Below are positions 5,674-44,781 of a stretch of DNA of 45,062 nucleotides, in pieces (positions within the stretch are counted from its first letter, which is position 1; every line of letters begins with the position of its first letter). The DNA lies in the sequence record OZ035765.1; one strand, written 5' to 3'. Under the pieces are notes generated by a model. It searched no databases. It saw only the letters and a list, made by a program, of their open reading frames with translations, and was not told where the DNA came from. The stretch comes from Veterinaerplatzvirus T145P1. The translations under genes and the position numbers were made by a program.

Positions 5674-6618
5674 ATGGCCATTAAATTTGATGCAGAACAA
5701 GCAAAAATCACCGCTCACCTCGAGCAAATGGGCGTAGAGAAAGCAGATGCCGCTGGTATCTGGACTGTTAAGCAACTGACCGCCAATCTGGCACGAGCTT
5801 ACGAAAAAGAATATGCAGACAACTCCGTTGTTAATATCTTCCCTGTGACCAATGAAATCCCTGGTCATGCGAAATATTTCGAATATCCAGAATTTGACGG
5901 CGTTGGCATTGCTCAGATTATCGCCGATTACTCTGACGACTTGCCGCTGGTTGATGCGTTTATGACCGAGAAACAGGGTAAAGTGTTCCGCTTTGGTAAC
6001 GCGTTCCTGATCTCCACTGACGAAATCAAAGCAGGTGCGGCAACTGGTCAGCCACTGTCGGCTCGCAAACAGGCTCTGGCATTCGAAGCGCATGATAACC
6101 TGCTGGATAAACTGGTATGGTCAGGCTCTACACCACACGGAATTCCTAGCGTGTTCAATCATCCGAACATCAACAACGTTGTTTCTGGTGGTGCGTGGAG
6201 CTCTGCATCTGCCGCCATGACTGATATTACCGCACTTATTGATGCAATCGAGACTGCGACTAATGGCACTCACACCGCAACTGATATCTTGCTGCCTGCC
6301 TCCGCTCGCCGCCTGATGCAAGAACTGGTGCCGAATACATCTATCAGCTACGCCCAGCTGTTCGCTACCAATAACTCTGGTATCACTCTGCGTTATCTTC
6401 AGTTCCTGGATAACTACGACGGAGCAGGCGGTAAAGCAGCATTGGCGTTTGAAAAGAATCCTCTCAACCTTTCGATTGAGATCCCGGAAGCGACCAATGT
6501 ACTTCCAGGACAGCCTAAGGATTTGCACATCCGCTACCCTGTTACCTCCAAAGCAACAGGATTGATTTTATATCGCCCTCTGACGGTGGCCGTAATGAAA
6601 GGTATCACCTTCGCGTGA
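5674..6618 (+). CDS. major capsid protein
   Basis: 314 aa; own sigma70-like promoter (TTGCGT-16-TATAAT), strong RBS and flanking terminators indicate very high expression. Confidence 0.65.
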   Translation: MAIKFDAEQAKITAHLEQMGVEKADAAGIWTVKQLTANLARAYEKEYADNSVVNIFPVTNEIPGHAKYFEYPEFDGVGIAQIIADYSDDLPLVDAFMTEKQGKVFRFGNAFLISTDEIKAGAATGQPLSARKQALAFEAHDNLLDKLVWSGSTPHGIPSVFNHPNINNVVSGGAWSSASAAMTDITALIDAIETATNGTHTATDILLPASARRLMQELVPNTSISYAQLFATNNSGITLRYLQFLDNYDGAGGKAALAFEKNPLNLSIEIPEATNVLPGQPKDLHIRYPVTSKATGLILYRPLTVAVMKGITFA

Positions 6619-6624
6619 TAAATC

Positions 6625-6647
6625 GCCCTCTTCGGAGGGCTTTTTTT
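6625..6647 (+). terminator. rho-independent terminator (after major capsid gene)
   Basis: GCCCTC-TTCG-GAGGGC followed by T7. Confidence 0.7.
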
Positions 6648-6710
6648 ACGTCTGTACCAAATGGATTTGTTGGGTTATAATCACTCAATCAGATAACAAA
6701 GGAGACAAAA

Positions 6711-6956
6711 ATGATTCGTTTAGAACACACTGGCGCTTGCCTTATCGTTTACAGGGGTGAGAAATATTTGCCTGGTGACACTTTCGAGGTTGATGCAATT
6801 TGCGACGGACTCAAGCGTTTAATCGCAGAGGGTAAACTCACCATTGAGGGTGACGCCAAAGCAACCAAACAAATCGCGCAAGAAGTTGTTAGCAAGAAAA
6901 AGCGCAGAGAACCGAAAACCATCTCCGAGGCTGAGACTGGTAACGAGTACAAATAA
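6711..6956 (+). CDS. hypothetical protein
   Basis: 81 aa, RBS AAAGGAG, terminator downstream. Confidence 0.45.
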   Translation: MIRLEHTGACLIVYRGEKYLPGDTFEVDAICDGLKRLIAEGKLTIEGDAKATKQIAQEVVSKKKRREPKTISEAETGNEYK

Positions 6957-6961
6957 TAAAC

Positions 6962-6984
6962 AGGGCGCTTCGGCGTCCTTTATT
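6962..6984 (+). terminator. terminator-like hairpin
   Basis: GGGCGC-TTCG-GCGTCC followed by TTTATT. Confidence 0.45.
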
Positions 6985-6997
6985 GTATGGAGCTAAT

Positions 6998-7399
6998 ATG
7001 AATGATGCAATTTTGGCGTTTATGCGCTCGCTTGTACCTGCTCTCAAAGCGGCGGATGACGAATCAATTAATGTATGGATTGATTTGGCACGTCTATACG
7101 TATGCGAAAGCAAGTTTGGAGCAGACAAAGACAAGGCTGTCGGCCTTTATGCATTGCACCTGATGCTTGCTGATGGCGCGTTTAAAGGCGAGAACGAAGG
7201 TCTGGAAACATACAGTCGTAGAATGGCAAGTTACGCACTGAGCGGTGAATTCTCTATCACATATGATACCCAATCAGCAGCATCTGGTGATTTATCATCT
7301 TCTCAATTCGGTAGGATGTATAAGGCGCTTCTTCGCAAGAAAGGCGGTGGATTTGGATTAATTACTTCCGCTACTGGCGGTGGGTGCGGTTGCCGATGA
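6998..7399 (+). CDS. head-tail connector/adaptor protein (putative)
   Basis: Start moved to ATG 6998 (GGAG 5 nt upstream); position between capsid and tail genes. Confidence 0.35.
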   Translation: MNDAILAFMRSLVPALKAADDESINVWIDLARLYVCESKFGADKDKAVGLYALHLMLADGAFKGENEGLETYSRRMASYALSGEFSITYDTQSAASGDLSSSQFGRMYKALLRKKGGGFGLITSATGGGCGCR

Positions 7400-23646: not shown

Positions 23647-24072
23647 ATGCACGTAATTACTGGTCAGATTCGACGCGCTCCATTCACTAAAGAAGGTCAT
23701 AATGCTAATGGTACCTGGAAAATGTTTGCGGTTGATTTGAGTGAGCGATACAAAGATAAAGATGGTCAGACTCAGTATAGTAACTATCGCGCAGTCTTCT
23801 TCGCGAAAGAGTCAATGTTAGATTGGTATAATGAAGCTTTTCAAGAGGGTAAAGTTGTTAGCGTTAGCGCAGAGACTCTTTCTGTTGATGTTAGAGATAA
23901 AGATGGCAAGACTTACGTTACTGTCAACATGAACAATCCTAGACTTGAGTTTAGTCAGCGCGGTGAAGGTGGCGTGCAGCAGCAACCTAGACAACAGCAA
24001 CAAGCACAACAGCAACAACAGAATCAACAGCCAAAACAGCAAAAGCAATTCGAAGATGATATTCCTTTCTAA
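23647..24072 (+). CDS. ssb: single-stranded DNA-binding protein
   Basis: OB-fold-like N-terminus, Gln-rich linker, C-terminal acidic tail ...FEDDIPF. Confidence 0.85.
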   Translation: MHVITGQIRRAPFTKEGHNANGTWKMFAVDLSERYKDKDGQTQYSNYRAVFFAKESMLDWYNEAFQEGKVVSVSAETLSVDVRDKDGKTYVTVNMNNPRLEFSQRGEGGVQQQPRQQQQAQQQQQNQQPKQQKQFEDDIPF

Positions 24073-26771: not shown

Positions 26772-27698
26772 TTAGTCTAGCAATTCGCTTGCCTTGTATA
26801 TTCGCTTTCTTATGCCTGACTTGAAAAAATTATCATCATTTGGCATTACCACATCAAGATCGCGATCGTCAGCAACGGCGAGTAAATCAAAATCGTTGCG
26901 AGTACAAGCGATGCGTAACTTGTATTTTCTAAGCGAGTAAGCAACCATTTCCATGTTGTAGCTGGAGTAGCAAACAAGCACGCAGCGGTTGCCAGTAGCA
27001 ATGTGAACACGATAGCCGTCAATGAGATTATCGACCAGATAAGCGTACTCATCATCCTTAAAGGAACCAATAACAGCAACAGACTGGCGAGTATAATCTT
27101 TTGCAGCATAACTAACATCTCCCTCTTCATTGATAAACATTACATTACACATTTCTTCTGATATACCGTCATTATAAGCCATAAAACACGGTACTGCGTG
27201 TATCAGTTCGCCTGATTTTGTCCTGCCAACATCAAAACCAAACTCGCTATAGATGCCCTCGTATGTGCTGAGCGGAGTTGATTCCACTCTTTCCGTCCTT
27301 TCCATTATCTCTAAGCATCTTTCGTGGTCAATCTGAGCGCCCATTTTGTATGGTGATGTTCTTGAAGCTCTTTTGTTTGCTTTTGATATAACCTCTACTG
27401 GAACGAGATTCAGCCAATCACCAAGCGTATCTATTGTTTCACTATAACTCATTCCAGAACACTTCATTACCCAACCAACACCAGAATCATTTCCACACTG
27501 GTTGCATATTGCTGCGCCATTTCCCTTTTCTTGACCTAACTCATCAGTGAAGCGAAACCTATCCTTGCCAAAGCAGTAAGGGCACGGACCATGTTTCTTG
27601 CTGAGATTCTCCTTTGTCCATCCAAGATGCGATGAGTAGAACTCACTCCACATCCCTTTCATCTTGGCTATCACTTCGTTCTTATCATGTTGACTCAT
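26772..27698 (-). CDS. DNA primase (zinc-finger type, putative)
   Basis: Start moved to ATG 27698 (GGAGGT RBS); CPYC...CNQC zinc ribbon; acidic DxD-type motifs. Confidence 0.6.
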   Translation of the reverse strand: MSQHDKNEVIAKMKGMWSEFYSSHLGWTKENLSKKHGPCPYCFGKDRFRFTDELGQEKGNGAAICNQCGNDSGVGWVMKCSGMSYSETIDTLGDWLNLVPVEVISKANKRASRTSPYKMGAQIDHERCLEIMERTERVESTPLSTYEGIYSEFGFDVGRTKSGELIHAVPCFMAYNDGISEEMCNVMFINEEGDVSYAAKDYTRQSVAVIGSFKDDEYAYLVDNLIDGYRVHIATGNRCVLVCYSSYNMEMVAYSLRKYKLRIACTRNDFDLLAVADDRDLDVVMPNDDNFFKSGIRKRIYKASELLD

Positions 27699-27753
27699 AA
27701 TTACCTCCATAAACAATAAAGGCACTATACATAATGCAAAGCGCCATTGTTTA

Positions 27754-28334: not shown

Positions 28335-30329
28335 ATGTTGCCTATCGAGAAGCTGGTTGCAAATTTCGATAAAGAAAGAATCAAACAGATTCAGAGAGAT
28401 TATCAGTTTGGCGAGATAACCCCTTACGAATTCCAGTGCGTAACATTTGATGCAATCGGGAAGGCTATTGGTAAGTATGAAGCGCCATTTATCGCTGACC
28501 TTTCAGTATCTGCGGGTAAGACAATCATTCTTGCCATGATTGGTAAGCGCATGGAGCAGCTTGGGCTTCCATATATGGTTCTCTCTCGCCAGTCAGAGAT
28601 TATCAGCCAGAACTCAGAAGAGCTTCGTAATTTCGGCATCCGTAATAGCGTCTATTGCGCTGGCCTTAACGTCAAATCAGTTTACTACCCAACTATAGTG
28701 GCCAGTGAGGGTACGGCAGCCAACGGCTTGTTTAAGGGGCTTGGTGACTATGTTCCGGCAGTTATCGCTATAGATGAGTGTCACATGGTCGATCACATGG
28801 ATATCGTGGAGGCTGAAGAGAATGAAGAAACATTTGAGCAAATGAGCACAAAGAAAGGCGATATGGTTTTTAAGGATGGCGTAAACACAGGATTGCTTGG
28901 TACTGGTCGTGCTCAGTACACGCTAATTATCACCGAGATGAAACGTCGTTGTCGTGAGAAGTACGGGCGTGAGCTTCGTATATTCGGTCTTACTGGCAGC
29001 CCGTATCGTAACAACGATCATATCGTCGTTAGCAACCCAAACATCCGTGGATTCTGGCGCAAAACAGTGATTCAGGTGCCAACAAATTATCTGGTTGATT
29101 TGGGCTTCGTGGTTCCTACTGTTTATGGTGAAGTTGGTGACCTGGGTTATGACCTTAGTGAGTTTGCGCCAGACGGAAGCGATGGCGTTAAAGACTTCAG
29201 CAAGAAAGAAATGGATGCAATGGCTGCAAAGATTCACGACAACCAATCAATGACCCAAAAGATAATGGGTTTTGTTGTGAAAATACTCGAGACTCGTAAC
29301 GCTGCATTGGTAACATGCGCTGGCAAACTCCATTGTGATGAGGCTGCTGCGGCACTACCAGATGGATACCCTTACGCCATCATCACAGACTCTACGGGAG
29401 AGAGGAAGCGCAGGGAGATTCTGGCTGATTGCCAGACAGGTAAGTACAAAATAATATTCCAGATTGGTTGTCTTACTACGGGCGTAAACCAGCCGCTGTG
29501 GGATACTAGCGTCATACTACGCAAGATTGGCAGCCTAACGCTTATGATTCAGCTTCTTGGTAGGGGGATGCGCAAACTTAAGAGATCTCATATTGATGCT
29601 GGTTTTCATAAAGAAGATCACCTTGTGCTGGATTTTGCTGGCGCACTTGATGATATGGCTGAGCTTTACTTTGACCCAATTATTGAAGAGATTCAGGCTG
29701 AGAAGTTTAAATCCTCAAGAAAAGGTGGCGATGAGGTTCGTCAGTGTCCGCAATGTGGATATGAAAATTCCCCATTCGCTCGTCGCTGTAGCAATAAGAT
29801 TGATGGCGTTAGATGCGATCACTTCTTTCAGTTCACAATTTGCGAAGACATTACCGACGCGCAAACTAAATCGGTAATTAAAAAGGGTTGTGGCGCTCGC
29901 AATGACATAGCAGCAAAGGTTTGCAGGGAATGCGGCGAGATGCTTAAAGACCCAAATGCTAACCTGACTGGCAAAATGTATCGTCGTGGTGATTACCTTC
30001 GTGTTTATGATTTTCAAGTTGGGTTAAGTAAGAATCAGACAGGCATTGTAGTTAAGTACAATATAATGGCTCATAACGGAGAGAGATTTAACGCTTGGGA
30101 GTTCTTTAATCCAGAATCAGACCATCGAGTTTGCAGTGTGCTCTGGAAGAACTTTTGCTTAGCTCATATTGATAATCGCACGGAAGCGGCACGAATTGGC
30201 AGGCTTAAAAATGCCAGAATGATTATGACTAACGTAGATAAGTTCCGTGCGCCAGTTCAGGTTACGCATCGCCGGAATGCAAAAGGAAAGGACGTGATAG
30301 CGTTTAAGAATTTTGGAGAATTATTATGA
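28335..30329 (+). CDS. SF2 DEAD/DEAH-box helicase
   Basis: Walker A VSAGKT, DECH box (AIDECHMV), C-terminal Cys-rich zinc-ribbon-like region. Confidence 0.8.
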   Translation: MLPIEKLVANFDKERIKQIQRDYQFGEITPYEFQCVTFDAIGKAIGKYEAPFIADLSVSAGKTIILAMIGKRMEQLGLPYMVLSRQSEIISQNSEELRNFGIRNSVYCAGLNVKSVYYPTIVASEGTAANGLFKGLGDYVPAVIAIDECHMVDHMDIVEAEENEETFEQMSTKKGDMVFKDGVNTGLLGTGRAQYTLIITEMKRRCREKYGRELRIFGLTGSPYRNNDHIVVSNPNIRGFWRKTVIQVPTNYLVDLGFVVPTVYGEVGDLGYDLSEFAPDGSDGVKDFSKKEMDAMAAKIHDNQSMTQKIMGFVVKILETRNAALVTCAGKLHCDEAAAALPDGYPYAIITDSTGERKRREILADCQTGKYKIIFQIGCLTTGVNQPLWDTSVILRKIGSLTLMIQLLGRGMRKLKRSHIDAGFHKEDHLVLDFAGALDDMAELYFDPIIEEIQAEKFKSSRKGGDEVRQCPQCGYENSPFARRCSNKIDGVRCDHFFQFTICEDITDAQTKSVIKKGCGARNDIAAKVCRECGEMLKDPNANLTGKMYRRGDYLRVYDFQVGLSKNQTGIVVKYNIMAHNGERFNAWEFFNPESDHRVCSVLWKNFCLAHIDNRTEAARIGRLKNARMIMTNVDKFRAPVQVTHRRNAKGKDVIAFKNFGELL

Positions 30330-34006: not shown

Positions 34007-34085
34007 ATGCTTCTTTTCCGAGCATGGCTCCTGTATCATGTTTACACTAACTTAAACATTGACAAATAAATAAATGGAGGATCAC

Positions 34086-34301
34086 ATGAGGGAAGTAATC
34101 AACGCCGCTACAGCGTCAACCGGCGGGGCTGCGGTAACTGGCGCAGCAACTGGTCAAATGACTATAGCAATAATCAGCCTTATCGCTTTAATCATTTTTG
34201 GCGCATGGGGTGCTTACTGGAAGTTTAAAGATAGCCAGGCGATTCGGCGTGCCATTGAATCTGGCGACCTAAAGACAGCAATCAAGATAAGGAGCAAGTA
34301 A
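34086..34301 (+). CDS. holin (single TMD, pinholin-like; possible dual start at 34074/34086)
   Basis: 71 aa with one hydrophobic TMD and a charged C-terminus; directly upstream of endolysin; two in-frame ATGs 4 codons apart. Confidence 0.6.
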   Translation: MREVINAATASTGGAAVTGAATGQMTIAIISLIALIIFGAWGAYWKFKDSQAIRRAIESGDLKTAIKIRSK

Positions 34302-34787
34302 ATGAAGCAGAAGCTGCTAATTAGCGCCGCTACGGCTGCGGCAATATACATCGCAGCACCGCTTATTGAGCTCGTAGAGGGTGTGGAGAACAAGCCTTAC
34401 ATGGACATTGCCGGGGTGAAAACCGTATGCGCAGGTATTACTGGCTCTGACGTTGTTTGGGGTAAGACTTACAGTAATAGGGAGTGCCGGAACCTGCTGG
34501 AGAAGCACATCCAGATTCATGGTAAGTATGTTCAGGATGCAGTTACCTACCCAATTGCACCACAGACAAGAGCTGCATTAATCAGCTTTAGCTATAACGT
34601 TGGCGGCAATGCAATGAGGAAGTCTACCGCTGTAAGGCTAATCAACCAGGGTAAAGTTGAGAAGGGTTGCAACGCTCTCGGGATGTGGAACAAAGCAAGA
34701 GTTAACGGAAAGCTGAAGGTAGTTAAAGGCTTGGTGAATCGCAGGAATGAGGAGATTAAGTTATGTTTAAGTGGATTGCAGCGTTAG
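34302..34787 (+). CDS. SAR endolysin (T4-type lysozyme fold, putative)
   Basis: N-terminal hydrophobic signal-anchor segment followed by E...D...T lysozyme-like catalytic region. Confidence 0.8.
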   Translation: MKQKLLISAATAAAIYIAAPLIELVEGVENKPYMDIAGVKTVCAGITGSDVVWGKTYSNRECRNLLEKHIQIHGKYVQDAVTYPIAPQTRAALISFSYNVGGNAMRKSTAVRLINQGKVEKGCNALGMWNKARVNGKLKVVKGLVNRRNEEIKLCLSGLQR

Positions 34788-35152
34788 TAGTGTGCGTAGC
34801 TTTATCTGGATGTTCGGCAACTGATGCACTGACTGGATTGATTGGAAGCAAGCCGGAAGTTACAGCTCAGGTCGGGGCTGAGAACAACAAGGTTGGCGTT
34901 GGGTTAACGAATAAGGTCGATTCCAGCAGCTCCAGTGAAGCCACGGTTAAAGATTCTAAAGTTGGGTCACTTGATAGCTCAAGCGGGAAAAAGACTGCTG
35001 ACAACTCGATTAAGGCATCTACAATCACTGCCGAAAAGATTGAGATTACCAACAACGACTCATCCGCGCCTCCATGGATTGTAATGGGAGCTATGGGGTT
35101 GCTGTTTTTTGTTCCACTTACCGCAATCTTAAGACGCAAAAAAGCCTCCTAA
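34763..35152 (+). CDS. unimolecular spanin (T1 gp11-like)
   Basis: N-terminal lipoprotein signal (LSGC) and C-terminal transmembrane helix followed by RRKKAS; overlaps endolysin 3' end. Confidence 0.7.
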   Translation: MFKWIAALVVCVALSGCSATDALTGLIGSKPEVTAQVGAENNKVGVGLTNKVDSSSSSEATVKDSKVGSLDSSSGKKTADNSIKASTITAEKIEITNNDSSAPPWIVMGAMGLLFFVPLTAILRRKKAS

Positions 35153-35168
35153 TGGAGGCTATATTTTT
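35137..35168. terminator. bidirectional terminator (spanin stop codon in loop)
   Basis: A6-GCCTCC-TAAT-GGAGGC followed by T-run. Confidence 0.65.
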
Positions 35169-35502
35169 AGCTAAATAACTCGTCGTCAGTCATTGTTCCT
35201 ATATTCATCATCTCTTTTATGTACTTGCTTTGATACCCGTTAAGCGCCTCGAAGTTAAACTCAAATGGCCTCTTCAAGCTACCATTGCTAGCAAACTCAC
35301 CGCACTTACCATCAATGTATCCCATGCTAAGCATCTTCGCGCAGAACTCCTTTGAAGCCGCGCTGCAAAACTCCCTATGCGATAATCCTGCCGCCTTACT
35401 GAATCTCTGAGAGTCCTTATGCTGGTAGATGAATCGCGCCAAATGCTGTCGCGTGAAAAAGCTGTAAGATTCGCAGAACCGGTACAAGTCAAGGATGAAC
35501 AT
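35167..35502 (-). CDS. hypothetical protein
   Basis: 111 aa, last gene of the minus-strand NTPase operon; bidirectional terminator after it. Confidence 0.45.
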   Translation of the reverse strand: MFILDLYRFCESYSFFTRQHLARFIYQHKDSQRFSKAAGLSHREFCSAASKEFCAKMLSMGYIDGKCGEFASNGSLKRPFEFNFEALNGYQSKYIKEMMNIGTMTDDELFS

Positions 35503-35504
35503 AA

Positions 35505-35591
35505 TTAACTCCTGAGCACTGCCAAAACAAATAGAAGCATCGAAATTGTTACAACAAAACCAAGTATTATCAGTAGTATCGATTCAATCAT
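35505..35591 (-). CDS. hypothetical 28-aa hydrophobic peptide
   Basis: ATG 4 nt after the NTPase stop; MIESILLIILGFVVTISMLLFVLAVLRS; stop abuts the next start. Confidence 0.3.
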   Translation of the reverse strand: MIESILLIILGFVVTISMLLFVLAVLRS

Positions 35592-35594
35592 AAA

Positions 35595-37178
35595 TCACCC
35601 CAGCAATCTCGGATTAATGTAAACTTTATCACCAATCAGGCACGTATAGTTTTTCTCATCAAGCATTGGCAGTAAGTGATCTTTAATCTTCGTCATCACT
35701 CCAGCCTGAGCCTCGAACGGCTTAACCTTTCGCGCCGCTTCATACAATGAGCGAATGCCAACAACACCCTTACCGTTTTTACCCTGCTTGATCAGGATAT
35801 CAATCAGCTTATTCATCTCGGCATTGTCGCCAGCGTGACCAGCCGCGTTGGCAGATGACAAATAAGTCTTGCTAAGCTCCTGGAACATGATTACAGCTTC
35901 TTGCATGGTATCAAGCTCAATCTCTCTGGATTTCTGTGGACTCCCACCGCTAGGGTTGAACCAGTTGCGCACTGTGTGAAGAACAGCAGCAATCCTGATA
36001 GCCTGCTTATCGAATTTACCCAGCGCGCCGCGCAACATTGTGTGGGAATACTTACCGCCGTCCGCAAGGTGCGGCTCCATTTCCTGACGTGCCCGGTTTA
36101 GATATTTCATCGCTGAGTTGCTAACCGTCAACTTTACTTCTTGCTCATTCATGATTTCGTGAACCAGGCGGAAGTAGTTAGCCTTAAGCTCACCATCAAT
36201 TGGCTCGTAAGTTGAGTTGCCATTCTCATCGACGAATACACGCTCGCCAAGGAATGATTTTTCACGCACAAGTAGAAAACGTTCCGACACACCAATACCA
36301 CGAGCACCAGCATTCATGATTGCGTTTATTGTCTCATCTTGCGCAATTACAGAGATGCATCCCATAGCGACGAAGCTCATGTTGTTTTCTGCGTTCGCAC
36401 GCGCAATGGACACGTTACCAGCATCCCACGCCTTGAGTACGAGCTCGCTGTTCGTTTTCTTTGAGCCATCACCATAGGTCATACCTAGCAGAGAGTTCAC
36501 GCTCGTTGCTTCATCAGAGATAACCGCGAAGTTGCCCTGGCGGTTGTTTATTCGCGCAAGACCTTCAGGTGTCGTATCTGATACTGGAAATACGATATCG
36601 CACATCTTTTCCAGCTTCTCCTCTAAATCCTCTTTCTCCTCAAAGAGAGACGCCATCTCTGATGGTGACTTTTCCTGCTTCATCTCTTTGGATAATGCAG
36701 ACAGCTTTGCCATAATCTTTTTACGCTCACGCTTTCGCACTTCATTAAGCCGCTCAGTCTCAGCAATCATTGGCGCAATAGAAAGCGAGTTAATTGCTGA
36801 TTTACCTGTGGATGGTGGCTGACTGGTTACTACGTATAGAGAGGTCGGTTGCTGGGTTCCGTGATACTCTACTGTAAAACGTCCCAGCATGGCGGCAGAA
36901 ATACACCCCAGAAAGTGCATATAAGCTGAAGACTCTGGAAATTGAACAGAACGGGCAATATTGGCTGACAGCTTACCAACAACATCAATGTCATTACCGA
37001 GTGAGATTACGGGATACTTGTCATTAGCCGCATCAATCTCAACTGGCGCTTTCCAGAATGATTGAGACTGACGATATCCATTGGCATTAATAGCGACGCG
37101 CAGGGGTGGGAGGTTGTCTGCGGCAGCAATTGCCATAACCTGTTCAACAGATAGCTTATCTTCGTTGAAATCAAACAT
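35595..37178 (-). CDS. P-loop NTPase of unknown function
   Basis: Walker A-like SQPPSTGKS and Walker B-like FAVISDEA separated by a charged coiled-coil insertion; own promoter module upstream. Confidence 0.6.
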   Translation of the reverse strand: MFDFNEDKLSVEQVMAIAAADNLPPLRVAINANGYRQSQSFWKAPVEIDAANDKYPVISLGNDIDVVGKLSANIARSVQFPESSAYMHFLGCISAAMLGRFTVEYHGTQQPTSLYVVTSQPPSTGKSAINSLSIAPMIAETERLNEVRKRERKKIMAKLSALSKEMKQEKSPSEMASLFEEKEDLEEKLEKMCDIVFPVSDTTPEGLARINNRQGNFAVISDEATSVNSLLGMTYGDGSKKTNSELVLKAWDAGNVSIARANAENNMSFVAMGCISVIAQDETINAIMNAGARGIGVSERFLLVREKSFLGERVFVDENGNSTYEPIDGELKANYFRLVHEIMNEQEVKLTVSNSAMKYLNRARQEMEPHLADGGKYSHTMLRGALGKFDKQAIRIAAVLHTVRNWFNPSGGSPQKSREIELDTMQEAVIMFQELSKTYLSSANAAGHAGDNAEMNKLIDILIKQGKNGKGVVGIRSLYEAARKVKPFEAQAGVMTKIKDHLLPMLDEKNYTCLIGDKVYINPRLLG

Positions 37179-37208
37179 TACTTCTCTCCGTGTTGTTTCT
37201 GAGCGGCC

Positions 37209-37251
37209 ATTATAACAACGACCGCTTATAAAGCATTATCAATTTGTGCTA
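37209..37251 (-). promoter_or_regulatory. conserved promoter/operator module (NTPase operon)
   Basis: Minus strand TAGCACAAATTGATA, 22 bp, TATAAT. Confidence 0.5.
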
Positions 37252-37418
37252 TTAATTGTTCTTAATCCACTTTAGACACATCCACAATCCAGCCCCATAG
37301 AATGCAATCTTGAGAACTTCAGCTAAGACAAGGATAATAAAGTATCCACCACCAAGTAAATCAATCATTTTTTAATCTCCATTTCCACAATTTCATAACT
37401 TATGTAATTATTTATCAT

Positions 37419-37604
37419 TCAAATAAGTGATTTTGGGTATGTCTTCATATGATTCTTGGCGGAATCTTCATCAAGATGTGCTGATATGTTGTGAAAATTG
37501 TATTCATAATCCATGCCAATTAGTATGTATATCTTATCGTGAGCATTAATGAAGTTATTTGATTTTATTTCCCCAAGCGACCAGCCCTTTCCTTTTCTAA
37601 TCAT
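37419..37604 (-). CDS. hypothetical protein
   Basis: 61 aa; ATGA overlap with the upstream gene. Confidence 0.4.
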   Translation of the reverse strand: MIRKGKGWSLGEIKSNNFINAHDKIYILIGMDYEYNFHNISAHLDEDSAKNHMKTYPKSLI

Positions 37605-37954
37605 TTGTATTGAGCCTCAAATCTGTAGTCGCCGCAGATTGTAATAAATCCAACCTCATCATCCCTTAAAAGCTGCCAAGCATTACCCTCTTTATCGTAA
37701 ATGCATCCAGCGCGCTGCCCAAGTCCAGCATGGAGATCTACTTGATATCGCTTACCTTCAGTAAAGTATTTTCGAATAGATGAGCGATGATTGACCTTTG
37801 TGCAATAAATTGTCTTTGTCTTAATATACTTTCCGCGCTCTTCCAGGTTAATCCATTTGCCATCTTTCTTGATTTGCTCTACACCATCTTTAACGCGAGA
37901 TTTGTAGAGTACGTTTTCGTTGCTGATCCAGTTTTTGGTAATCGTAGTAGTCAT
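37601..37954 (-). CDS. hypothetical protein
   Basis: 117 aa; promoter module on minus strand at 37996-38038. Confidence 0.45.
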   Translation of the reverse strand: MTTTITKNWISNENVLYKSRVKDGVEQIKKDGKWINLEERGKYIKTKTIYCTKVNHRSSIRKYFTEGKRYQVDLHAGLGQRAGCIYDKEGNAWQLLRDDEVGFITICGDYRFEAQYK

Positions 37955-39219: not shown

Positions 39220-39232
39220 TTCGTTAGATTTA

Positions 39233-39321
39233 TGTATTGTTGCAGATATTGCAATGATTCACTTGATTATTGCACATACAGCAATATTGCTTCCGATGCA
39301 ATGATGTTTTTGATTGTTGCG
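39233..39321. repeat. iteron-like array of ATTG(N)TGCA / ATTGCAAT motifs
   Basis: At least six related motifs spaced 14-18 bp apart. Confidence 0.5.
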
Positions 39322-44704: not shown

Positions 44705-44781
44705 GCTCGAGTGGCGAAAGTGGATATCGCAAGAGACTTCTAATCTCTAGATTGCTGGTTCGAATCCAGCCTCGAGCGCCA
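44705..44781 (+). tRNA. tRNA-Arg (anticodon UCU)
   Basis: Hand-folded cloverleaf: 7-bp acceptor GCTCGAG/CTCGAGC, D-arm GCGA/TCGC with GG loop, anticodon stem AGAGA/TCTCT with loop CTTCTAA, T-arm GCTGG-TTCGAAT-CCAGC, discriminator G, encoded CCA. Confidence 0.85.

Follow-up and report, generated by a model that had tools for sequence, protein, structure and literature searches.

The stretch of DNA considered here, hereafter the window, is the whole 45,062-nucleotide (nt) sequence of Veterinaerplatzvirus T145P1 (record OZ035765.1), which carries on its minus strand, beside the lysis genes, a compact cassette composed of a gene for a 527-aa protein, a 28-codon hydrophobic open reading frame (ORF) and a gene for a 111-aa protein. 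This cassette is probably the conserved gp09-gp10 helicase module of T1-like (Drexlerviridae) phages, a reading whose firm components are family membership, fold prediction, conserved catalytic motifs and gene linkage, together with the coding signal of the mini-ORF. The module is ordinary apart from an unannotated membrane mini-gene lodged between the helicase and its partner. Its main component belongs to an already known and widely annotated helicase family, and no new system is involved; what is new is modest, namely the fold assignment of gp10 together with its conserved tail motif, the universality of the coupling between the two genes, and an overlooked family of membrane micro-ORFs in their junction.

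The three ORFs follow one another on the minus strand, separated by 3 nt and then by 2 nt. The helicase gene (35595..37178) ends with a TGA stop codon at 35595-35597, the mini-ORF (35505..35591) starts 3 nt on with the ATG at 35589-35591 and ends with the TAA at 35505-35507, and 2 nt further on the 111-aa ORF (35167..35502) opens with the ATG at 35500-35502. The coordinates and a terminator scan bear out the anatomy described in the first-pass annotation, which had proposed three closely coupled ORFs ending at a bidirectional terminator beside the lysis genes, and the sequence agrees with its statement that the mini-ORF begins at the fourth nucleotide past the helicase stop. The region is 100% identical to T145P1. 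Relatives from the Braunvirinae (Rtp, JulesPiccard, SU57 and others, all T1-like coliphages of the Drexlerviridae) are 87-93% identical across it, and their records show at the same three positions first T1 gp09 (527 aa), then a gap without annotation and then T1 gp10 (111 aa), beside the gp11 spanin.

The 527-aa protein: family, motifs and fold

The 527-aa protein matches the Pfam family DUF3987 (PF13148) with 144.7 bits against a cutoff of 27 (E 5.6e-42), residues 81-430 aligning to profile positions 3-349 of 364, and it also matches PHROG 2373, 'DNA helicase', with an E value of 5e-259. By tblastn the helicase was found in 921 phage records, many of which label it DNA helicase. DUF3987 proteins have been classed in helicase superfamily 6 (SF6) as distant relatives of MCM with a winged helix-turn-helix at the C-terminus; their genes usually lie beside a primase or are fused with it, and they are predicted to be replicative helicases (Kazlauskas et al., PMC4889955). 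A Walker A motif that varies on GxxxxGK[ST] and a Walker B motif have been reported for the family, and one of its members, the PriCT-DUF3987 protein AgaPH, is an oligomeric, ATP-dependent 5'-3' helicase that needs both motifs, unwinds forked DNA and binds its primase-polymerase (PMC11724360).

Both motifs are present in the protein of the window. Walker A, the P-loop QPPSTGKS (residues 120-127; 36798..36821, minus strand), forms part of the SQPPSTGKS stretch at residues 119-127, and its Q120, P121, P122, S123, G125 and K126 are invariant in 29 homologs reaching down to 35% identity. In Walker B, FAVISDEA (residues 217-224; 36507..36530, minus strand), E223 is invariant and D222 is an aspartate in 24 of the 29 sequences and an alanine in the other 5. 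The homologs thus display the DUF3987-type signatures QPPSxGK[ST] and S[D/A]E, and the 97 residues from K126 to E223 agree with the first description of a deviant Walker A and a Walker B about 100 residues apart. The conserved catalytic positions of this alignment are G125-K126-S/T127, E223, Q280-D281-E282 at the end of strand beta4, E299-R300 ('SERF') at the junction of helix 4 and strand 5, and R383. R300, Q280/D281 and R383 lie where the order of secondary-structure elements would lead one to expect the arginine-finger, sensor 1 and sensor 2 residues, a placement made by that order and not by residue-level structural alignment. SERF may be likened to the MCM 'SRFD' arginine-finger motif.

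An AlphaFold2 (AF2) model built from the 29 homologs reached a predicted local distance difference test (pLDDT) score of 89.5 and a predicted template-modeling score of 0.86. It divides into a helical domain at the N-terminus (residues ~1-100), the AAA+ core (~100-430) and, at the C-terminus, a winged helix (~451-527). In fold comparison the model is MCM-like, with an AAA+ core closest to MCM; further matches were the SCCmec Cch and SaPI5 helicases and, for the C-terminus, winged helices of the ORC/Cdc6 type. Sequence searches of the PDB, run with the helicase alone and with the 29-sequence profile, returned nothing meaningful, so that the link to MCM comes from fold comparison only, and NCBIfam gave no useful match for any of the three cassette proteins. 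The highly charged coiled-coil segment noticed earlier between the Walker motifs corresponds in the model to a charged helical hairpin (residues 126-191; 36606..36803, minus strand) formed by helices 126-166 and 172-191, and can be regarded as a family feature, since the Pfam profile passes through it without a large insertion.

Neither the label 'orphan' nor the claim that the protein does not fit the helicases of this phage survives these results: the DUF3987 match is full-length, PHROG 2373 is a DNA helicase group, many relatives carry the gene as an annotated helicase, the predicted fold is MCM-like, and the family includes a biochemically demonstrated helicase. The profile searches and structure prediction that the first-pass annotation had suggested as a check have largely returned, through DUF3987, PHROG and the fold, the clear homology to a known replicative-type helicase that it had named as evidence against itself. 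Purifying selection on the helicase and on the 111-aa gene is strong, protein identity being 97-98% at a DNA identity of 87-89%.

Some database entries related to this helicase deserve separate mention. Foldseek matches to apparent helicase-gp10 fusion proteins of Vibrio phage Vc1 were rejected as assembly or frameshift artifacts resulting from internal duplications and read-through. More broadly, the 'helicase' or 'DNA replication protein' entries of Shigella phage 2019SD1, Salmonella virus STSR3 and Vibrio phage Vc1 (P0108, P0111, P0117) are assembly or frameshift artifacts: they look like domain fusions because of sequence duplicated or rearranged within them and of reading that runs on into the gp10 frame.

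The helicase-gp10 junction and its membrane mini-ORF

The gp10-type gene lies next to the helicase gene and directly after it in 30 of 31 comparison loci, with a gap of 2-4 nt in 22 of them. When the junction was compared across the window and these loci (32 in all, of which one, L031, was unscorable), it proved to be empty in 22, to contain a hydrophobic ORF of 25-30 codons in 8 of the 32 (the window included), and to contain an endonuclease gene in SU57. The latter encodes a 171-aa HNH_3 (plus AP2-like) homing endonuclease (Pfam E 6e-21) at 6506-7021 on the minus strand of the SU57 locus (L001), equivalent to 35503-35594 of the window, and has its own copy of a 21-nt promoter repeat and its own terminator; because this gene sits there, the junction can be considered an insertion hotspot. 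Rather than a fixed part of the module, the mini-ORF is an accessory insertion of patchy occurrence, at a site that a homing endonuclease gene can occupy as well. The idea of a three-gene coupled cassette is therefore sustained as regards the small ORF itself and fails as regards its standing as a regular component.

The encoded peptide, MIESILLIILGFVVTISMLLFVLAVLRS, has a grand average of hydropathy of 2.34 and one predicted transmembrane helix, in agreement with its initial description as purely hydrophobic. Judging from its sequence features, the 28-codon ORF is quite probably a real, translated micro-gene. The alternative, that it is a T-rich spacer or insertion scar left open by chance, is unlikely, even though the insert is absent from 22 of the 31 comparison loci, has never been called by an annotation pipeline or a gene caller and is annotated in none of the records that carry it, and even though 8-28% of shuffled inserts stay merely open. 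Against a chance origin, every insert of mini-ORF size is open, beginning 3 nt past the helicase stop and ending a few nt short of the following ATG, and this holds for at least three unrelated sequence types (MIESILL.../MLETILL.../MIEILLI.../MLDILLI...; MNEYLWVF...; MRKIESFV...). Members of the homologous group show a single difference in length, an in-frame indel of 3 nt and hence of precisely one codon. T occupies codon position 2 in 52-75% of the codons and position 1 in only 18-36%, a signature of coding for hydrophobic residues, and shuffled inserts that are both open and as hydrophobic as the real ones are rare (P <5e-5 to 0.024 across variants).

The arrangement of translation signals argues in the same direction. 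The mini-ORF ATG uses the ribosome-binding site GGGGTGA, which in phages without an insert serves gp10 at the same spacing, and the last codons of the mini-ORF (AGG AGT or TGG AGT) provide a new GGAG Shine-Dalgarno sequence for gp10, which accounts for the conserved '[R/W/G]S' end of the peptide. The mini-ORF would be an accessory gene in its own right, fast-evolving and encoding a membrane peptide of one helix, inserted in some lineages without breaking the coupling, in that it may take over the ribosome-binding site with which the helicase gene ends and carry a fresh one for the 111-aa gene. Nucleotide identity within the first mini-ORF type is ~66%, compared with ~87% over the whole aligned region. 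An exact look-up of eight peptide variants gave no hit in a collection of 15 billion proteins, and the 28-aa peptide has no homology in Pfam, PHROG, NCBIfam or PADLOC. The peptide is probably not part of the helicase mechanism.

A second tiny hydrophobic ORF of 38 aa (MIDLLGGGYFIILVLAEVLKIAFYGAGLWMCLKWIKNN) is located at 37252-37368 on the minus strand, directly upstream of the helicase promoter module, and SU57 has at this position a coding sequence of the same length annotated as hypothetical. The whole minus-strand block from 39220 to 35143 is rich in tiny genes.

The 111-aa protein

The 111-aa protein belongs to PHROG 2794, whose function is given there as unknown, and it has no match in Pfam, NCBIfam or PADLOC. 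A word-indexed search assembled 72 clusters of the family, an exhaustive profile search found 23 representatives among 1.8 billion proteins, and the gene was found in 834 phage records, essentially the same set as the helicase. In these searches the gp10-type protein appears to be restricted to the Drexlerviridae, and no gp10-like gene or DDELF-type motif was found beside the DUF3987 helicase of the distant relatives L032 and L033.

The structural model (pLDDT 86) predicts a winged helix over residues 1-75, in which three helices are followed by a beta-hairpin wing, and a flexible tail of lower confidence. Eighteen columns of the gp10 alignment are invariant, among them the acidic motif DDELF near the end of the tail (residues 106-110), which is followed here by a single residue. 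The SSB C-terminal tail consists of an acidic run with hydrophobic residues and ends in a terminal Phe with a free carboxylate; lacking a Phe at the very C-terminus, DDELF is not a strict mimic of it. In all six frames of the window, the pattern of three acidic residues, a hydrophobic residue and Phe occurs only in the tail of gp10 and in that of the phage SSB. The first-pass annotation had singled out the 111-aa protein as Cys-containing, and four Cys are indeed present; as C10 alone among them is nearly invariant, a metal-binding cluster is not to be expected.

A likely role in phage DNA replication

The most likely role of the DUF3987 protein is at the replication fork, and the option named first in the first-pass annotation, that the cassette is related to replication, finds support in the family and in the MCM-like fold. 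The window encodes a DnaG-like primase (26772-27725), a superfamily 2 (SF2) helicase (28335-30329) followed by a VRR-NUC nuclease gene, an Erf recombinase and a DUF3799 exonuclease, together with a 141-aa ORF (23647-24072, plus strand) which has no family match and which, to judge by sequence and location, is the phage SSB. This SSB ends in ...QQKQFEDDIPF, in which we take FEDDIPF to resemble closely the C-terminal docking tail of E. coli SSB. Such a tail suggests recruitment of host SSB-interacting replisome and repair proteins. No phage DNA polymerase is encoded in the window, and the lack of an own polymerase has also been pointed out for T1 and TLS, which need host enzymes for polymerization (PMC11447400).

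The evolutionary context of the gene is informative. Two metagenomic relatives, L033 and L034, have a DUF3987 protein of 36% identity; its gene there overlaps a DnaG-like primase gene at the end of the latter and also adjoins an SF2 helicase and a DUF3799 exonuclease of the same families as those in the window; their primase is a full-length homolog of the window primase (E 3e-41). Since the two genes overlap in these relatives and the primases are homologous, the DUF3987 gene is best seen as a member of a primase-helicase module that has been displaced in the Drexlerviridae.

On these grounds the following mechanism can be proposed. The 527-aa protein, an MCM-like (SF6, AAA+) helicase, would most likely form a ring and would use ATP to unwind phage DNA at the fork, working with the phage DnaG-like primase, the phage SSB and, as no phage polymerase is encoded, the host DNA polymerase III. 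The 111-aa protein, made in step with the helicase through translational coupling, would most likely act as a helicase accessory factor with a docking motif: its winged helix may bind either DNA, be it at the origin or at a site of loading, or the helicase itself, and its acidic DDELF tail may dock on a replisome partner.

Several points weigh against this picture. Here, ~8 kb separate the DUF3987 gene from the primase gene, and its neighbors are the lysis genes; a search for iterons or an origin found none near the cassette, and a search of the literature found no experiment on any Drexlerviridae gp09 or gp10. In most other subfamilies DDELF is followed by 5-22 residues, and the partner role of the 111-aa protein derives entirely from linkage and a modeled fold, a winged helix with an acidic tail being a combination that could equally belong to a transcription factor. 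Translation of the 28-codon ORF is likewise something we infer. Finally, the TLS paper gives the name of 'the helicase' only to the SF2 enzyme beside the primase (PMC11447400).

The last point leads to another explanation of the DUF3987 protein, namely that it is a helicase for recombination, repair or fork restart, or an initiator, and that host DnaB or else the SF2 helicase of the phage (28335-30329) drives the fork. We consider this decidedly unlikely. In its favor, the SF2 gene adjoins the primase here and is treated in publications as the helicase, the phage relies on host enzymes for polymerization, and the FEDDIPF tail of the SSB suggests a wide use of host replisome proteins. The SF2 gene, however, is followed by the VRR-NUC nuclease gene, and the pairing of these two enzymes is typical of fork remodeling or recombination; SF2 enzymes are not known to be ring-shaped fork helicases. 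The overlap of primase and DUF3987 genes in distant relatives and the MCM-like predicted fold further favor the DUF3987 protein as the fork helicase, and so does the ability of the characterized family member to unwind forked DNA and to bind its primase-polymerase (PMC11724360).

A bolder proposal goes beyond the fork-helicase reading and can only be put forward as a tentative, rather unlikely one. According to it, the 111-aa protein would take the part of the initiator or adaptor that is missing in T1-like phages, placing the MCM-like helicase on phage DNA and linking this helicase through DDELF to host replisome proteins, either of the SSB-interaction network or the beta clamp; separately, the junction between helicase and adaptor would serve as a cargo slot that exchanges fast-evolving membrane micro-proteins and homing endonucleases. 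If true, the first part would account for the capture of DNA polymerase III by a phage that has no polymerase.

Transcription of the cassette

Upstream of the helicase start, at 37179..37254 on the minus strand, a putative promoter module with its 5' leader can be read in the sequence. It starts with a copy of the 21-nt Drexlerviridae direct repeat, TTAATAGCACAAATTGATAAT (~37234-37254), continues with an extended -10 element, TGTTATAAT (hexamer at 37209-37214; TGATATAAT in relatives), and a conserved leader, and includes the Shine-Dalgarno sequence GGAGAG. The consensus of the repeat, aaATAGCACnnnTTGnTAAAA, was described in phage TLS, where its function is listed as an open question (PMC11447400). 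A scan for canonical sigma-70 promoters detected no good promoter upstream of the helicase, the module having been found by eye and by motif search, and the spacing of ~22 nt between TTGCTA and the -10 element is not the canonical one for sigma-70.

This promoter-like module of ~75 nt is present in at least 13 copies in the window. Each copy lies shortly upstream of a gene that runs on its strand, and the previous stop codon is often included in the overlap. The module is made up of AATAGCACnnnTTGcTAAA, a stretch of ~20 nt in which a short inverted repeat rich in G and C is usual, either TATAGT or TATAAT, CATCGAAACGA and a Shine-Dalgarno sequence. The ATAGCAC element starts at 2116, 9294, 22881, 26708, 28246, 30742, 31583, 33693, 40489, 42323 and 43700 on the plus strand and at 39220, 37252 and 20595 on the minus strand, and the exact 8-mer AATAGCAC occurs 12 times, when by a hand estimate a random 8-mer should occur ~1.4 times on 2 x 45 kb.

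At the other end, the cassette shares with the converging lysis genes a bidirectional intrinsic terminator (35143..35160, both strands) detected by terminator scan and folding. Its hairpin, AGCCTCC-TAAT-GGAGGCT, has an A-run on one flank and a T-run on the other and folds with -15 kcal/mol (z = -3.4); the stop codon of the plus-strand u-spanin gene sits within the loop, and the equivalent site is already annotated as a terminator in SU57 and CEB_EC3a. The lysis genes, identified from the annotation of relatives, are all on the plus strand and encode holin (34074-34301), endolysin (34302-34787) and u-spanin (34763-35152). Being bounded by its own promoter-like module and by this terminator, the cassette constitutes a discrete unit; its designation as an operon needs the correction that read-through from the module near 39220 is also likely, no terminator lying between the cassette and the upstream small genes.

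The -10 element of the cassette is situated within the loop of an inverted repeat, AGCGGTC/GGCCGCT (37202-37226, minus strand). An inverted repeat that encloses or abuts the -10 element is found just upstream of the helicase start in every subfamily (L001-L031), with a wholly different sequence in each, and within the Rtp-like group a change in one arm is accompanied by one in the other (AGCGG/CCGCT, AGAGG/CCTCT, GCGGCC/GGCCGC). The repeat may serve as an operator, form an RNA hairpin in transcripts that read through, or belong to the promoter.

These features bear on a further explanation of the 111-aa protein, that it is a transcription regulator which binds the 21-nt repeats or the inverted repeat of its own promoter and contacts RNA polymerase through DDELF, the coupling to the helicase serving only for co-expression. 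Three observations speak for it: there are at least 13 promoter-like modules whose binding factor is an acknowledged open question (PMC11447400), the -10 element of the cassette lies inside an inverted repeat with compensatory arm changes (AGCGG/CCGCT versus AGAGG/CCTCT), and the protein, like the repeat, is conserved family-wide. Nevertheless, a stop/start coupling of 2-4 nt maintained throughout the family is more typical of subunits of one complex, and the inverted repeats upstream of the helicase are wholly different among subfamilies; regulation of transcription is a serious alternative but an improbable one, and the function of helicase accessory factor is preferred.

Two 24-nt direct repeats (TGCAATGATTCACTTGATTATTGC, 79% identical and 47 nt apart) were noticed at 39250-39320, within the intergenic region from which the early block on the minus strand and the genes on the plus strand diverge, and may possibly mark a regulatory or origin region.

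Exclusion, defense and counter-defense

That the whole cassette is an exclusion, defense or counter-defense module, whose ATPase and membrane peptide act on rival phages or host immunity, is very improbable, as the helicase and 111-aa genes are near-universal core genes (921 and 834 records) under strong purifying selection, fold and motifs correspond to a replicative-type helicase, distant relatives place the DUF3987 gene in a primase operon, and a PADLOC search of the three proteins gave no significant match to a defense system (the best being JetC coiled-coil noise on the charged hairpin, E 0.0096), all of this in spite of a neighborhood rich in small accessory genes, of a homolog of the SECphi27 trigger of Mokosh type I two genes upstream, and of a patchy, fast-evolving mini-ORF of the kind typical of accessory or conflict genes. 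The corresponding option of the first-pass annotation is therefore unsupported, and an accessory or exclusion role is conceivable for the 28-aa peptide alone.

The homolog just mentioned is a 117-aa ORF (37601-37954, minus strand), two small genes upstream of the helicase, with 38% identity (E 5e-20) to a 128-aa protein of SECphi27. A frameshift in that protein allows escape from Mokosh type I, and its expression is toxic in Mokosh I cells (bioRxiv 10.1101/2022.08.27.505566). In SECphi27 (L036) the trigger gene is directly upstream of the helicase-gp10 pair (7015-6632, 6342-4765, 4759-4430). The 128-aa trigger was also considered as a possible gp10 homolog, gp10 being 129-131 aa long in that subfamily, and was rejected, as it is homologous to the 117-aa ORF instead.

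Other observations and significance

The only Rfam match in the window is one tRNA gene (44705-44778, plus strand; RF00005, 66 bits). Among public records, near-identical T1-like coliphage genomes appear under unrelated host names, as Campylobacter phages A110b, A127 and A15a, Pseudomonas phage PsgS01F and Streptococcus phage MBBL140. The PsgS01F genome and that of E. coli phage UALMA_PCEc3 are both 44,679 bp long and have an identical mini-ORF. The odd host names of these records are probably due to contamination or host misattribution.

T1-like phages are common laboratory and industrial contaminants as well as candidates for phage therapy, and their replication initiation has hardly been studied. 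The universal association of an MCM-like helicase with a family-specific winged-helix protein offers a concrete two-protein target for the study of this process, and the mini-ORF probably provides a small example of real micro-genes that are missed by every annotation pipeline at insertion sites of mobile elements.

Comparison with known systems

The initiators and loaders of the phage lambda O/P type are similar to this module in logic only: a small protein with a DNA-binding fold is tightly linked to helicase function and the host polymerase is used. No sequence similarity or specific structural similarity of the 111-aa protein to O, P, DnaC or Cdc6 was found, and, unlike in lambda, there are no iterons found here, the helicase is encoded by the phage and the small protein lies downstream. 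The mini-ORF product recalls type I toxin-like peptides and the small membrane 'morons' of phages in its length of 25-30 residues, its single predicted transmembrane helix, its fast evolution and its having been missed by annotation. It differs from them in having no evident antisense RNA or promoter of its own and in being translationally coupled inside a replication gene pair.

The helicase shares with archaeal and eukaryotic MCM a strand hairpin before beta4 (model residues 255-270), whose position is taken as that of the pre-sensor-1 hairpin, the arginine-finger-like 'SERF' and a C-terminal winged helix. In contrast, sequence identity to MCM is 12-18%, with no sequence-level match to any PDB chain, the MCM-type N-terminal OB/zinc domain is missing, and a long helical hairpin after the P-loop helix replaces the MCM helix-2 insert. 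The direction of movement also sets the two families apart, as MCM helicases run 3'-5'. The characterized DUF3987 helicase AgaPH runs 5'-3' (PMC11724360). The closest resemblance is to the DUF3987 helicases themselves (AgaPH, the helicase domain of phage N4 dns, T1 gp09/Rtp67), with which the 527-aa protein shares a full-length profile match, the Walker type, the helical hairpin between the motifs, the C-terminal winged helix and, in its relatives, the association with a primase. Compared with other members of that group, the subfamily, known from sequence and model, has no fused PriCT or primase domain, its gene in this phage lies ~8 kb from the primase and against the lysis cassette, and it is always followed by a family-specific winged-helix gene.

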